Shown here: piece by piece, positions 2,340 to 5,474 of the stretch | How positions within the stretch are numbered: the first letter of the stretch is position 1 | Layout of the letters: every line of letters begins with the position of its first letter | Origin: a virus | Lineage: Duplodnaviria > Heunggongvirae > Uroviricota > Caudoviricetes | Direction: 5' to 3' (one strand) | DNA length: 26,326 nt | IMG/VR virus record: IMGVR_UViG_3300027007_000013 | Position numbers and translations under genes: made by a program | The notes under the pieces: model-generated | Told to the model about the DNA's origin: nothing | Database searches by the model: none | Seen by the model: the letters and a program-made list of their open reading frames with translations, nothing else

Positions 2340-2413
2340 GCCGGGAGGGCCCGCCTGGTGCGGGCACGTGGCTGTTACCCACGAGGCGCTTGGTTCGAGT
2401 CCAAGTCCCGGCG
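2340..2413 (+). tRNA. tRNA-Asn(GTT), non-canonical D-arm
   Basis: Acceptor GCCGGGA/TCCCGGC, anticodon stem CGTGG/CCACG, GTT at 2374-2376, T-loop TTCGAGT, discriminator G. G8 and a 5-bp D-stem GCCCG/CGGGC. Confidence 0.85.
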
Positions 2414-2494
2414 CCTTCGAGTATCAGAAAAACGAAACAACTAATATAGCATCACGTCAAAGGTAGAATACCCAAAATGGTAAGAAACATGATA

Positions 2495-2569
2495 GGGCTT
2501 GTAGCTCAGTCAGGCGAGAGCAGTCGACTCCATATCGACCGGTCGGGGGTTCGAATCCCTTCGAGTCCA
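2495..2569 (+). tRNA. tRNA-Trp(CCA), intronless
   Basis: Canonical cloverleaf: GGGCTTG/CGAGTCC, GTCGA-CTCCATA-TCGAC, anticodon 2530-2532, TTCGAAT. Confidence 0.92.
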
Positions 2570-2664
2570 CTGGGACCACATCGCGGCAAATCGCACGGTC
2601 CCGCTAACGATGAGGGTCGCCTGGGGAGGTGACACGTCGTTCGGGGGCCCCCACGATCCCTCAA

Positions 2665-2738
2665 TGGCACATAGTTCAGTCTGGAAGAACGTCCGGCTCA
2701 CATCCGGGCGGTCCCCGGTTCGAATCCGGGTGTGCCAA
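2665..2738 (+). tRNA. tRNA-Val(CAC)
   Basis: TGGCACA/TGTGCCA (U1-A72), anticodon CAC 2699-2701, CCCGG-TTCGAAT-CCGGG. Confidence 0.9.
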
Positions 2739-2871
2739 TCCCCGAAGACCCGGGCCTATCCGGTGACGGGGTCTGCGGCCCTGCTCGAGAGTCGCTAATG
2801 CTTGCGGGCGAACGCGGCCCGTGGGAAAGGCACAAGAGCCAATCGAGAAGGGGGAGCGATCCCCCATCCGA

Positions 2872-2943
2872 GTGCCCGTAGCTCAGTGGTAGAGTCCCTC
2901 CTTTGCAAGGAGGTCGCCCGGGGTTCGAATCCCTGCGGGTACA
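2872..2943 (+). tRNA. tRNA-Ala(TGC)
   Basis: GTGCCCG/CGGGTAC with the G3:U70 alanine identity pair; anticodon TGC 2904-2906. Confidence 0.95.
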
Positions 2944-3029
2944 CTGCGACACGGTGATCGACCCCTGCGCTCCGGCGTACAGATCGACACATCGACAGCG
3001 CCCACGGTGGGAAGTACGTGACACGTCCA

Positions 3030-3075
3030 GTCCTAACTAATCTGTCGGAGCAGACCGTCGGAGATTAGTTAGGAC
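3030..3075. repeat. 14-bp perfect AT-rich inverted repeat in a tRNA spacer
   Basis: GTCCTAACTAATCT (3030-3043) and AGATTAGTTAGGAC (3062-3075), 18-nt loop. Confidence 0.85.
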
Positions 3076-3080
3076 ACGGT

Positions 3081-3155
3081 GGGTCGGTAGCTTAGCCTGC
3101 GCAAAGCGTTCGGCTTTTAACCGAATGACCGGGGGTTCGAATCCCTCCCGACCCG
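3081..3155 (+). tRNA. tRNA-Lys(TTT)
   Basis: GGGTCGG/CCGACCC, TTCGG-CTTTTAA-CCGAA, anticodon 3116-3118. D-loop AGCCTGCGCA lacks the usual GG. Confidence 0.92.
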
Positions 3156-3305
3156 TGGGGCGGTTTGTCTCTGGCCGCTGAGCTCGGTAGTCCCGAACCA
3201 CAAAAGAATCCCAGAGGACGTTGAGTGGACGATCACTCGCGAGTACGCGGGGAGGACGCTTCCCGCAATCAACCCTCATAGTCGGGTATCCCCCGACTTG
3301 CCTAT

Positions 3306-3378
3306 GGCTTCGTAGCTCAGTCGGTAGAGCCCTCGATTTGTAATCGAGAGGCCGGGAGTTCGATCCTCTCCGAAGCCT
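3306..3378 (+). tRNA. tRNA-Thr(TGT)
   Basis: GGCTTCG/CGAAGCC, anticodon TGT 3339-3341, U73. Confidence 0.95.
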
Positions 3379-3385
3379 TCTGACT

Positions 3386-3458
3386 CCGTTCGAGCTCACG
3401 TGGGAGTGAGATACGACTGTAGATCGTACCGCTCCAGGTTCGAATCCTGGCGAACGGA
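3386..3458 (+). tRNA. tRNA-Tyr(GTA), non-canonical D-arm
   Basis: C1-G72 and A73 (archaeal Tyr identity), anticodon GTA 3419-3421, short variable loop. A8 and a 5-bp D-stem CTCAC/GTGAG. Confidence 0.85.
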
Positions 3459-3510
3459 CTCGGGGACCGCGGCTCGGTTGATCCATCATCTCGACCGAGC
3501 AACTCCCCGG

Positions 3511-3643
3511 AGTCGATGCTGATCTCTGAGCGGCATCCGAAGACATGATCGACGGAGTCCCGTTTAGTGTCAGGCGCCGTGGGTAACTGATTAGTAGCAG
3601 CCTACCCTGGCGCCGGGCTTTTCACGCGGCTTCAGCATCGACT
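3511..3643 (+). ncRNA. Candidate structured RNA (multi-branch, 12-bp closing helix) inside the tRNA array
   Basis: AGTCGATGCTGA/TCAGCATCGACT encloses arm 1 (GACAT/GTGTC plus GACGG/CCGTT) and arm 2 (GGCGCC/GGCGCC plus GGGTA/TACCC plus CTG/CAG). Confidence 0.5.
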
Positions 3644-3650
3644 TTCAGCT

Positions 3651-3726
3651 GCTCCAGGAGTCTCCGCTGGCGAGAGATGCCTGACTTTCAATCAGGTGGC
3701 CGTCGGTTCGATTCCGACCTGGAGCA
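3651..3726 (+). tRNA. tRNA-Glu(TTC), non-canonical D-arm
   Basis: GCTCCAG/CTGGAGC, CCTGA/TCAGG, anticodon TTC 3687-3689. G8 and a 5-bp D-stem GTCTC/GAGAT with loop CGCTGGCGA. Confidence 0.82.
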
Positions 3727-3807
3727 CTCGCGCCCATGCCCTGTGGCGCACGAGATCGAAGTAATGGGGTAGCATCGTACGATGACCGGGTGTGCACCCA
3801 CCCTTAC

Positions 3808-3878
3808 GCGTCAGTGATCCAACGGCAAGACAGGAGCCTTCCAAGCTTCAGATCTCGGTTCGATTCCGAGCTGGCGCA
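3808..3878 (+). tRNA. tRNA-Gly(TCC)
   Basis: GCGTCAG/CTGGCGC, A73, anticodon TCC 3840-3842; weak D-stem. Confidence 0.88.
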
Positions 3879-4072
3879 CTGGGGCTGACATCCCAGTACC
3901 ACTGTCCGGCCTATACTCGTGAGCGGCCGAGAAATACCACGAGGGGGTACACCGACCCGACGTAAGAACTGGTAGACGACGATCGCGAGCGGCCTCGAAC
4001 CGATCACCGGGTGCGTTGCCAGCGCACTTCGCAGGTGGCGGGCCACACCTATAGGTCGCGATCTTCGCACGC

Positions 4073-4149
4073 AGTCTCCGGCGCTGCACTGGCGAGCGGC
4101 GACCAGCCTTTGGAGCTGGCGGAGATGGGTTCGATTCCCTCGGAGACTA
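4073..4149 (+). tRNA. tRNA-Gln(TTG), non-canonical D-arm and bulged T-stem
   Basis: A1-U72 acceptor AGTCTCC/GGAGACT (archaeal Gln type), CCAGC/GCTGG, anticodon TTG 4110-4112. 5-bp D-stem GCTGC/GCGGC; T-stem GA(T)GGG/CCCTC with one bulged base. Confidence 0.72.
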
Positions 4150-4198
4150 TCAGGGGCGTTCAACACCGGTAGTAGCCGGTCCCGTTGCGCCCCGCTGT

Positions 4199-4270
4199 GC
4201 CGATGTGGTGTAGTGGCTAACATCGGACCCTGTCACGGTCCGGTCTCGGGTTCGAATCCCGACGTCGGCG
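4199..4270 (+). tRNA. tRNA-Asp(GTC)
   Basis: GCCGATG/CGTCGGC, G73, anticodon GTC 4232-4234. Confidence 0.95.
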
Positions 4271-4335
4271 TGGGGTTGAGTTGCCCCAACTGTAGGCATG
4301 CCGGGCGTTGGCCGGCCCGATATCCACGGCCACGC

Positions 4336-4406
4336 GCTCCTGTGGTGTAACGGAAACATTGTGCCCTCTCGAGGCGCAGCTCGGGGTTCGATTCCTCGCA
4401 GGAGCA
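4336..4406 (+). tRNA. tRNA-Glu(CTC)
   Basis: GCTCCTG/CAGGAGC, anticodon CTC 4368-4370, canonical U8/A14. Confidence 0.93.
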
Positions 4407-4407
4407 T

Positions 4408-4483
4408 AGTCCCGCGGCGTCTGCTGGCGAGACGTGCCGGCCTCTGGAGCCGGAGATCGAGGGTTCGATTCCCTCCGGGACAA
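4408..4483 (+). tRNA. tRNA-Gln(CTG), non-canonical D-arm, A1/A72 mismatch
   Basis: (A)GTCCCG/CGGGAC(A), CCGGC/GCCGG, anticodon CTG 4444-4446. C8 and a 5-bp D-stem GCGTC/GACGT with loop TGCTGGCGA. Begins 1 nt after tRNA-Glu(CTC). Confidence 0.78.
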
Positions 4484-4504
4484 GTTCCCGTACGTTGGGT
4501 ACGG

Positions 4505-4645
4505 GTGTGGGAGACGATCGAGATCGCGACCCGCAAGCAGATCATCGCCCTGGCCGTGGTACTCATCATGGTTGGTGGCGTCATGTTCGGAGGTATAGGT
4601 CTGGATGAACAGAGTGGTTTGGATGAGCCCGCATCGCGCCCATGA
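4505..4645 (+). CDS. Single-pass membrane microprotein (46 aa) within the tRNA array
   Basis: GTG start; MWETIEIATRKQIIALAVVLIMVGGVMFGGIGLDEQSGLDEPASRP has RK followed by a ~20-aa hydrophobic helix and an acidic tail; fills the only unstructured spacer of the array. Confidence 0.6.
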   Translation: MWETIEIATRKQIIALAVVLIMVGGVMFGGIGLDEQSGLDEPASRP

Positions 4646-4677
4646 AATAGTTTGAAAGGGCTCACCGACAGCTACGT

Positions 4678-4751
4678 GGCCGGACTGGTCTAACTGGTTA
4701 AGATTCAGCACTGTGACTGCTGAGAACCGCGTTCGAGTCGCGGGCCCGGTC
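4678..4751 (+). tRNA. tRNA-His(GTG)
   Basis: Genome-encoded G-1 opposite C73; CAGCA/TGCTG; anticodon GTG 4713-4715; one acceptor mismatch (A6/C67). Confidence 0.88.
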
Positions 4752-4808
4752 CTCCGTCAGGTAAATCCACGAACTACATAAAAGTTCGAGGATTTGGCTT
4801 GACACAGA

Positions 4809-4883
4809 TGGGCGATAGCGTAGCTTGGTTATCGCGCGTGCCTTGGGTGCACGAGATCGCAGGTTCAAATCCTGCTCGCCTAA
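4809..4883 (+). tRNA. tRNA-Pro(TGG)
   Basis: TGGGCGA/TCGCCTA, CGTGC/GCACG, anticodon TGG 4844-4846, GCAGG-TTCAAAT-CCTGC. Confidence 0.9.
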
Positions 4884-4958
4884 TGGACTGTGGCACGGGT
4901 CATACGTCCTTCCCGTAGGACACGTATCCTACGGACCATACGGAACAGACACCTCCCC

Positions 4959-5387
4959 ATGTCCACGACAAAGGAGCGACCAGACAACGGTGGGCTGGTC
5001 TCAGTCGGTCAGTCAGAATCGCGCACGAAACACGTAGACGCCGCGCTTGTCGAATCATTTGCGGCGGTCACTGGAGATGAGAATCCGCTCCACCTCGACG
5101 ACGATCACGCCGCCGAGACGATGTTCGGCGAGCGGATCGCCCACGGGATGATCACGGCCGGACTGGTCAGCGCCGCGCTGACGGACCTGGTCGACCCCGA
5201 GGTGGCGACGGTCGTCTACCTCTCACAGACCCTCGAGTTCCAGAAGCCAGTCTACGTCGACGACGAGCTCACTGCGACGGTCGAGATCGTCGAAGATCTC
5301 GGTGGGAGTCGCTATCGACTCCGTACGTATGCAGAGACAGACGTGTCCGTTGTCGATGGTGAGGCGGTGATCTTACTCTCGACATAA
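4959..5387 (+). CDS. MaoC-like (R)-specific enoyl-CoA hydratase (PhaJ type, hot-dog fold), 142 aa
   Basis: Signature FAAVTGDENPLHLDDDHAAETMFGERIAHGM (catalytic Asp/His) and YLSQTLEFQKPVYVDDELT. ATG at 4959 chosen because the longer ORF starts only 6 nt after tRNA-Pro and runs through a hairpin. Confidence 0.92.
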   Translation: MSTTKERPDNGGLVSVGQSESRTKHVDAALVESFAAVTGDENPLHLDDDHAAETMFGERIAHGMITAGLVSAALTDLVDPEVATVVYLSQTLEFQKPVYVDDELTATVEIVEDLGGSRYRLRTYAETDVSVVDGEAVILLST

Positions 5388-5398
5388 CGAACGGACGC

Positions 5399-5474
5399 GC
5401 CCCTGTAGCTCAGCCAGGACAGAGCAGCGGCCTTCGAAGCCGCGTGATCGGGAGTTCAAATCTCTCCAGGGGCT
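5399..5474 (+). tRNA. tRNA-Arg(TCG)
   Basis: GCCCCTG/CAGGGGC, GCGGC/GCCGC, anticodon TCG 5434-5436, A20 in D-loop. Confidence 0.95.

Follow-up and report, generated by a model that had tools for sequence, protein, structure and literature searches.

What is to be made of transfer RNA (tRNA) genes that lack the U8-A14 contact, which is regarded as all but universal among the elongator tRNAs of the cytoplasm? The question is raised by a viral DNA stretch of 26,326 nucleotides (nt) assigned to the Caudoviricetes (IMG/VR record IMGVR_UViG_3300027007_000013; hereafter the window), which carries a dense cluster of 16 tRNA genes. Five of them, encoding tRNA-Asn, tRNA-Tyr, tRNA-Glu(UUC), tRNA-Gln(UUG) and tRNA-Gln(CUG), have a residue other than U at position 8, no A14, a Watson-Crick pair between positions 14 and 21, and a D-stem of 5-6 base pairs (bp). 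We consider that they are probably working decoders belonging to a conserved subclass of haloarchaeal elongator tRNAs with a long D-stem, spread by mobile elements, in which the stability of the stem would replace the U8-A14 contact. The subclass is shared by hosts, plasmids, and viruses; its members have so far mostly been annotated as pseudogenes and it has gone unrecognised.

Structures were taken from the ARAGORN output, parsed by script, and from a direct reading of the raw sequence. Both bear out an earlier note, made from the letters of this stretch, according to which these five tRNAs lack U8 and A14 and have an extended D-stem, and the remaining 11 tRNAs of the window keep U8 and A14. 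Position 8 is G, A, G, G, and C in Asn, Tyr, Glu, Gln(UUG), and Gln(CUG), respectively, and position 14 is G, C, C, G, and C, in each case Watson-Crick paired to position 21. All five genes lie on the plus strand. tRNA-Asn(GUU) (2340-2413) has G8 G9, the D-stem GCCCG/CGGGC (2349-2353 with 2361-2365) closed by the fifth pair G14:C21, the loop CCTGGTG, and A26; a possible sixth D-stem pair (C2354:G2360) would leave a 5-nt loop. tRNA-Tyr(GUA) (3386-3458) has C1-G72, A73, A8 G9, the D-stem CTCAC/GTGAG (3395-3399 with 3406-3410) with C14:G21, and the loop GTGGGA. tRNA-Glu(UUC) (3651-3726) has G8 A9, the D-stem GTCTC/GAGAT (3660-3664 with 3674-3678) with a G10.U25 wobble and C14:G21, and the loop CGCTGGCGA. 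tRNA-Gln(UUG) (4073-4149) has A1-U72, G8 G9, a 6-bp D-stem CGCTGC/GCGGCG (4082-4087 with 4096-4101), and the loop ACTGGCGA, and tRNA-Gln(CUG) (4408-4483) has an A1.A72 mismatch, A73, C8 G9, the D-stem GCGTC/GACGT (4417-4421 with 4431-4435) with G10.U25 and C14:G21, and the loop TGCTGGCGA. The 5-bp D-stems listed in the earlier note are thus correct for Asn (possibly six pairs), Tyr, Glu, and Gln(CUG); the pairs that it gave for Gln(UUG), GCTGC/GCGGC, are just the inner five of a 6-bp stem that begins at C10, and taking them as the whole stem would need a 3-nt linker. The acceptor identity elements that it named (C1-G72 and A73 in Tyr, A1-U72 in Gln(UUG)) are indeed kept, and so are the anticodon loops and the T-arm motif, although it overlooked a three-pair T-stem in Gln(UUG) and the mismatched first pair in Gln(CUG). 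Common to all five are the elbow-forming GG of the D-loop, the T-arm GGTTCGANTCC, an anticodon loop of 7 nt in which U33 and a purine 37 are kept, and a 5-nt variable loop. Four of the five lack G15, the archaeosine site, and should therefore be unable to carry archaeosine at that position.

Apart from the D-arm, these are ordinary molecules. Asn, Tyr, Glu(UUC), and Gln(CUG) have the class-I cloverleaf (7-bp acceptor stem, 5-bp anticodon stem, 7-nt loop, 5-bp T-stem, GTTCRANYC), Gln(CUG) with its mismatched first pair, and all five show the features that define the long-D-stem subclass (non-U8, purine 9, Watson-Crick 14:21, D-stem of at least 5 bp, G18-G19, normal T-loop, 5-nt variable loop), C8 of Gln(CUG) being an exception to the usual purine at position 8. 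The minimum-energy fold of Asn is a cloverleaf with a 6-bp D-stem and that of Tyr a cloverleaf with a 5-bp D-stem, unlike those of two canonical neighbour tRNAs, which are not cloverleaves. Gln(UUG) can alternatively be read with a 9-bp acceptor stem and a 3-bp T-stem, as in an allo-tRNA-like 9/3 fold; its minimum-energy fold (a thermodynamic prediction alone) combines these with a 6-bp D-stem, and its nearest relative, in locus L231, has no clean 9-bp stem. The five are also exactly the lowest scorers of the cluster against the Rfam tRNA model (RF00005, gathering threshold 29 bits), with 46.4 bits for Asn, 38.7 for Glu(UUC), 32.5 for Gln(CUG), and none for Tyr and Gln(UUG). The best Rfam match of Gln(UUG) is tRNA-Sec (RF01852), at 24.5 bits for a threshold of 47. 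We rejected a tRNA-Sec identity for the five, given their anticodons (GUU, GUA, UUC, UUG, and CUG), their 5-nt variable loops, and a best score that is below threshold, as well as a Y RNA/YrlA identity (RF02553; 19.3 bits at 4437-4530, E = 1.2, threshold 69), since their anticodon arms are complete. Matches to further Rfam families were all below threshold.

Homologues of the Glu and Gln tRNAs were sought with a pattern in which G8 A9 G10 U11, the loop core, A24 Y25, and the T-loop were fixed and positions 12, 13, 14, 21, 22, and 23 were left free. It occurs in at least 118 metagenomic contigs, all of brine, saltern, or soda-lake origin by name, and in 60 stretches of cellular genomes, 59 of them from named haloarchaea. 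The sole exception, L287 (PUKZ01000014.1, 3 kb), is binned as Bacteroidales from a sediment sample, carries part of a haloarchaeal array including a long-D-stem Gln(UUG), and is probably misbinned. Among the 157 matches listed, the anticodons are Gln(UUG) in 88, Glu(UUC) in 63, Glu(CUC) in five, and Ala(UGC) in one, so that 156 of the 157 are Glu or Gln; in these matches a C-G pair stands at 14:21 in 153 cases and a T-A pair in the other four, 12:23 is C-G, A-T, or T-A, and 13:22 is T.G, T-A, or C-G. Apart from L264, the acceptor type follows the anticodon: sequences with a Glu anticodon have G1-C72, and those with a Gln anticodon have A1. Two members of this family, L166:679-754 (minus strand) with the anticodon UGC (Ala) and L264:817-893 (plus strand) with the anticodon UUG, have Glu-type bodies and are either decaying copies or anticodon switches.

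The extra D-stem pair covaries. In 64 distinct sequences of the Glu/Gln family, 96.9% of the stem cells are paired and changes on both sides occur at 20 of the 22 pairs; the fifth D-stem pair is CG in 60 and UA in two, and the two misfit rows are misaligned. None of 500 shuffles reaches any of these measures, and sliding the partners lowers pairing to 41-50%. The Asn family behaves in the same way (28 distinct sequences, 98.8% of cells paired, both-side changes at 16 of 23 pairs, 0 of 500 shuffles), its fifth pair 14:21 being CG in 17, GC in nine, GU in one, UG in one, and never unpaired, and its sixth pair always C-G. For the A8-G9 type of Tyr we found five genes, with 14:21 as C-G in three of them, including the window; in the other four (from the cultivated virus HGTV-1, L169, L219, and L266) it is C-G, C-G, U-A, and G.A, respectively. 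The window Gln(UUG) and Gln(CUG) have a single close D-arm relative, the Gln(CUG) of L231. Compensatory upkeep of the extra pair in homologues is therefore seen for Asn, Glu(UUC), and Tyr. Because compensatory changes occur in every helix, the fifth D-stem pair included, these comparisons support selection on the stems, and with it the view that the long-D-stem design has been kept by selection rather than left behind by decay. The earlier note had proposed just this, from five genes, and had named covariation of the fifth pair as the test; the swaps between C-G and G-C in Asn and between C-G and U-A in Glu/Gln, together with 97-99% stem pairing, speak in its favour.

The combination is also uncommon outside this setting. 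With the same parser, 21 of 546 distinct tRNAs (3.8%) from unrelated viral loci look like long-D-stem forms, compared with five of 16 in the window. Among 511 distinct class-I tRNAs of haloarchaeal context, chosen independently of the D-arm search pattern, a residue other than U at position 8 and a Watson-Crick 14:21 pair co-occur strongly (58/23/8/422, odds ratio 133, P = 2e-48). A purine occupies position 8 in nearly every case, the linkers GA, AG, and GG making up 159 of 178. We looked for a rule that ties position 8 to the new pair and abandoned it: 17 of the Asn sequences combine A8 with C14:G21 and eight combine G8 with G14:C21, G8 goes with C14:G21 in Glu/Gln, and no single triple rule covers both; the Asn pattern may reflect merely two clades. 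A bacterial origin of the Glu/Gln D-stem was likewise discarded. Its GUCU/GGAC sequence is identical to the D-stem of Escherichia coli tRNA-Glu, but the acceptor stem GCUC is of the archaeal Glu type. Long-D-stem Gln and Glu tRNAs share one D-loop and one variable loop, and the Gln family mostly has a mismatched first pair (of 53 distinct sequences, 35 have A.G at 1:72 and 12 have A.A, 47 in all, versus the archaeal A1-U72), as in L044:7012-7087 (minus strand) or at window positions 4408/4482. Tyr, Thr, Val, Lys, and Phe tRNAs also occur in the long-D-stem form, and the middle base of the anticodon is A or U in nearly all such tRNAs. A further long-D-stem variant was noticed in three genes for tRNA-Asp or tRNA-Met (L060:6867-6943 and L063:7233-7309, both on the minus strand, and L139:3352-3428, plus strand), which keep U8, have U14 and the D-loop TCTGGCGA, and may form a 6-bp D-stem with a 4-nt loop; their contigs are unrelated virus contigs, probably bacterial.

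The same core is used by a chromosomal housekeeping tRNA of the hosts themselves. In Salinibaculum litoreum (complete genome, array-bearing), the dispersed tRNAs found with Rfam all have U8 and A14 save its only tRNA-Thr(UGU), which has G8 A9, a 6-bp D-stem GCUUGG/CCAAGC, and the loop GUGGU. A BLAST search with this gene, in which matches had to span 64 nt or more with an identity of 80% or higher, finds full-length homologues in 112 of 121 sampled Halobacteria genomes, and all 32 distinct homologues inspected have G8 A9, with 12:23 switching between U-A and A-U and 14:21 being G-C, once A-U. The viral Thr(UGU) of L044 is homologous to this host tRNA and shows a compensatory change at 12:23. 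In Haloferax volcanii, the Thr(TGT) gene has been reported to have G8, G14, and a low Cove score, and a G8-G14 Hoogsteen pair was guessed at; the RNA itself was never sequenced and the 14:21 pairing was not mentioned (Grosjean et al. 2008, PMC2584109). The window presents the reverse of what is seen in Glu, Gln, and Asn, its own Thr(UGU) (3306-3378) being fully canonical (U8, A14; 68.6 bits) whereas the Thr(UGU) of the host class is non-canonical.

Haloarchaea also carry long-D-stem tRNAs on mobile arrays. The 60 genome stretches, which are located on plasmids, small contigs, and chromosomes, share the order Gln(UUG), Asp, Pro, three Ser, two Leu, Tyr, Glu(CUC), Met or Lys-Asn(GUU), Glu(UUC), Arg(UCG), a 1.7-kb gene, and Gly(GCC), in which the long-D-stem members are exactly Gln(UUG), Glu(UUC), and Asn(GUU), while Asp and Glu(CUC) are canonical. 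The pattern is present in 41 of 401 sampled Halobacteria genomes (about 10%; the reversed control pattern in none), and the array tRNAs are therefore accessory. The window shares the Gln(UUG)-Asp(GUC) adjacency and otherwise differs in order; it thus has the gene families of the array, not the array itself. The claim of the earlier note that this is a distinct viral architecture is consequently too wide, the same core being found in host Thr(UGU), in plasmid and chromosomal arrays of haloarchaea, and also in the cultivated HGTV-1. No description of the fold appears in the halovirus literature that we searched.

The 1.7-kb array gene (L294:5255-6835, plus strand, between Arg(UCG) and Gly(GCC)) encodes TROVE and Ro60-vWA domains, and HGTV-1 has a TROVE open reading frame (ORF) of 511 amino acids (aa) (record 66660-67424, minus strand; L394/L395). 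The ten window ORFs that were scanned have no TROVE domain, and TROVE is absent from the sister contig L001, from L044, from L136, and from a complete 104-kb relative. As long-D-stem tRNAs occur in elements that have no TROVE, we rejected it as their obligate partner. No Y-RNA-like partner was identified for the TROVE gene of L294 or of HGTV-1.

One IMG/VR contig, IMGVR_UViG_3300027007_000012 (L001), whose polymerase is 92% identical to that of the window, gives a view of the same cluster in a sister virus. Its Asn orthologue has an identical D-arm, an A-U in place of one G-C pair of the anticodon stem, and two pairs of the T-stem swapped on both sides. The other four genes (Tyr, Glu(UUC), and both Gln) have been lost. 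The gap runs from the T-loop of Glu(UUC) to that of Gln(CUG), and a chimera of the 5' part of Glu and the 3' end of Gln remains. This remnant (L001:3401-3490, matching window 3385-3391, 3652-3713, and 4471-4483) consists of the first nucleotides of Tyr, then Glu(UUC) from position 2 to the T-loop (60 of 61 identical), then the 3' end of Gln(CUG). It looks like a deletion by recombination between identical T-arm sequences that removed seven tRNA genes. Since the sister virus deleted four of them, the five genes are probably accessory.

How might such tRNAs work? We propose that the U8-A14(-A21) contact would be replaced by a residue other than U at position 8, nearly always a purine, and by a Watson-Crick 14:21 pair that would stack on the D-stem and extend it to 5-6 bp. 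The result would be a tRNA-Sec-like D-arm on an ordinary class-I body (7/5 stems, G18-G19, normal T-loop, 5-nt variable loop), in which the added helix stability may stand in for the lost tertiary pair and make folding less reliant on core contacts and modifications. Anticodon and acceptor identity would move together with the tRNA body, and host enzymes would transcribe, process, and charge the viral copies, which would then read their own codons; these enzymes should be able to handle them because the host runs an essential Thr(UGU) of the same design. The virus would have taken the genes from a shared mobile pool, as accessory genes.

Several observations weigh against this reading. The T-stem of Gln(UUG) has just three Watson-Crick pairs (GGG/CCC), and the first pair of Gln(CUG) is an A.A mismatch. 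Tyr and Gln(UUG) have no RF00005 match even at E = 10. Four of the five genes are dispensable in the sister virus. In eight genes of the window, GAA makes up 28% of the Glu codons, CAA 11% of the Gln codons, AAT 16% of the Asn codons, and TAT 16% of the Tyr codons; set against a crude host reference, these shares give no support to a codon-supply need for the tRNAs. The covariation signal may stem partly from a few deep clades rather than from many independent events. Finally, the substitution of stability for a tertiary contact is inferred by analogy with tRNA-Sec, for whose long D-stem Ishii and colleagues are said to have made a stability argument in 2013.

Other explanations start from the same facts. 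That the five, wholly or in part, are tRNA pseudogenes with their stems retained appears rather improbable: low or absent Rfam scores, the listing of such genes as pseudogenes in published clusters and in HGTV-1, the 3-bp T-stem of Gln(UUG), the block deleted in the sister virus with its Glu/Gln chimera, and the stray relatives with altered anticodons (L166 with Ala(TGC), L264 with a Glu body and TTG) would all agree with decay, but for whole families it is excluded by 97-99% pairing, double changes (in 28 + 64 distinct sequences), invariant T-loops, and conserved anticodons. It is possible just for single copies, above all Gln(UUG), which may be a decaying copy. A non-decoding role is weaker still. 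The five would then be decoys or tRNA-like partners of Ro60/TROVE, like the bacterial Y RNAs, as might be suggested by the TROVE/Ro60 gene beside Glu(UUC)-Arg in the cellular arrays and by its presence in HGTV-1 and in 20 of 29 published clusters (Morgado and Vicente 2019); however, the complete anticodon arms, the match between anticodon and acceptor identity, a YrlA score of 19.3 bits against a threshold of 69, and the presence of long-D-stem tRNAs in elements that have no TROVE make such mimicry highly improbable. The D-arm and the first pair could instead alter how the tRNAs are treated by a non-discriminating GluRS, AspRS, GatDE, and GatCAB and so re-route indirect aminoacylation. The design falls on the array Glu(UUC), Gln(UUG), and Asn(GUU), with Asp and Glu(CUC) canonical, and Gln and Glu share their D-loop and variable loop, with a 1:72 pair of A.G or A.A in 47 of 53 Gln sequences; GatDE is known to read A1-U72 and to reject tRNA-Glu by its longer D-loop, and archaeal GatCAB to read the D-loop, position 49, and the 5-nt variable loop (Sheppard et al. 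2008). Still, Tyr, Thr, Val, Lys, and Phe tRNAs also take this form, the host example is a Thr, and no synthetase or amidotransferase was noticed in the elements, which leaves re-routing very unlikely.

A role in counter-defence or independence from the host deserves somewhat more attention, although we consider it unlikely as well. Replacement tRNAs might escape host tRNA nucleases or a viral shut-off nuclease, or work without the core modifications of the host. The mobile long-D-stem isoacceptors are Glu-UUC, Gln-UUG, Asn-GUU, Tyr-GUA, and sometimes Lys-UUU. These are classes attacked by known anticodon nucleases of the gamma-toxin, PrrC, and colicin E5 types. The lack of G15 in four of the window tRNAs points in the same direction, and so does the Ro60/TROVE gene of the arrays and HGTV-1, whose product has been described as an RNA-repair platform with a tRNA-like partner (Iyer et al. 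2021). On the other side, the essential Thr(UGU) of the host has the same core, so the core alone is no mark of foreignness, and as the host already handles the design, evasion by architecture alone is weakened. Moreover, known anticodon nucleases recognise the anticodon loop and not the D-arm. No nuclease candidate was identified, and TROVE is absent from the scanned ORFs of the window, from the sister contig, and from the complete 104-kb relative. One may also imagine that haloarchaeal viruses and plasmids carry a portable 'translation insurance', in which the isoacceptors most vulnerable to tRNA-directed attack or to control by amidotransferases (Glu-UUC, Gln-UUG, and Asn-GUU, at times Tyr and Lys) were rebuilt on the long-D-stem core, Gln with a mismatched first pair, so as to be treated differently by host nucleases, core-modifying enzymes, or GatDE/GatCAB, with Ro60/TROVE in the same module; this we regard as an unlikely extension. 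As for the choice of isoacceptors, three patterns fit about equally, namely targets of anticodon nucleases, indirect aminoacylation, and an A or U as the second anticodon base, and host Thr fits just the last, loosely. The set is thus compatible with the evasion of nucleases or modification enzymes, with decoys, and with the amidotransferases, all raised in the earlier note, and singles out none of them. Working decoders of a shared haloarchaeal subclass therefore remain the explanation that we prefer.

The tRNA genes lie in about 3.1 kb (2340-5474, plus strand), where ARAGORN called all 16, the five odd ones included, directly downstream of an integrase gene (707-1813). An attP role for tRNA-Asn, which adjoins the integrase, was considered and dropped, as the viral Asn is unlike the canonical Asn of the host. 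The cluster also contains one MaoC-like dehydratase ORF (4890-5387, plus strand; 165 aa; Pfam E = 7e-23) between Pro(UGG) and Arg(UCG). Its tRNA-Gly(UCC) (3808-3878) has U8 and A14, yet only about two Watson-Crick D-stem pairs, and the Gly(UCC) of HGTV-1 is likewise weak. Other window genes encode an ATP-dependent DNA ligase, a family-B DNA polymerase, a beta-helix protein, a 1979-aa ORF, and a UvrD-type helicase. Among deposited phages the window has no close relative, the sole matches being of 80% to tRNA-Arg.

If our reading holds, these genes represent a natural and abundant class of tRNAs without U8-A14, supported by covariation, extending over several amino acids, and present in tractable organisms (Haloferax volcanii, HGTV-1/Halogranum). 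The design would explain the 'pseudogene' calls in haloarchaeal tRNA clusters (one to three in each) and in HGTV-1 (two or three), and annotation pipelines should keep such genes. Two core designs for one anticodon within one cell would offer a handle on synthetases, amidotransferases, archaeosine insertion, decoding, and anti-viral tRNA cleavage. The gene families shared with the arrays also link viral tRNA clusters to a mobile tRNA array common to plasmids and chromosomes.

Several known systems resemble the five tRNAs in part. The tRNA-Pyl of Desulfitobacterium hafniense is an active natural tRNA with G8 and without U8-A14 (review PMC7609411); unlike the window tRNAs, it has a single nucleotide as linker, a tiny D-loop that lacks G18-G19, six pairs in the anticodon stem, and a variable loop of 3 nt. 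tRNA-Sec (RF01852) shares with them a long (6 bp) D-stem, a short D-loop, and the loss of the 8-14 and 15-48 contacts (PMC7609411), whereas the five lack a UCA anticodon, a long variable arm, and a 13-bp acceptor/T helix, and Glu and Gln keep a 9-nt D-loop. The same 2020 review of non-canonical tRNAs contains no haloarchaeal or viral entry. The tRNA clusters of halophilic archaea that Morgado and Vicente (2019, PMC6333295) tied to mobile elements are, like that of the window, dense mobile arrays with overlapping isotypes and long-D-stem Gln(UUG), Glu(UUC), and Asn(GUU), and nearly every one of them has tRNA 'pseudogenes'; they differ in carrying TROVE, in not being part of a virus, and, apart from the shared adjacency, in gene order, and the paper contains no structural analysis. 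HGTV-1 (NC_021328), of a related virus lineage, likewise has a tRNA cluster. G8 A9 and the D-arm of the window Glu(UUC) recur in its Glu(CUC), but with G-C instead of G.U at 10:25; A8 G9 is found in its Thr(UGU), together with a 5-bp D-stem, and in its Tyr, so that the design falls on partly different isoacceptors in the two viruses; a 2026 paper on HGTV-1 (PMC13532342) lists three putative tRNA pseudogenes and viral tRNAs 'of unknown function' and leaves the architecture undescribed. The tRNA-Thr(UGU) of Halobacteria has, like the five, no A14, a Watson-Crick 14:21 pair, a 5-6 bp D-stem, and a short GG loop on a normal class-I body, together with G8; unlike them, it reads for another amino acid and is chromosomal and near-universal in the class. 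Its design is retained in the viral Thr(UGU) of L044 and HGTV-1, while in the window, where Thr(UGU) is canonical, it is found on Asn, Tyr, Glu, and Gln.

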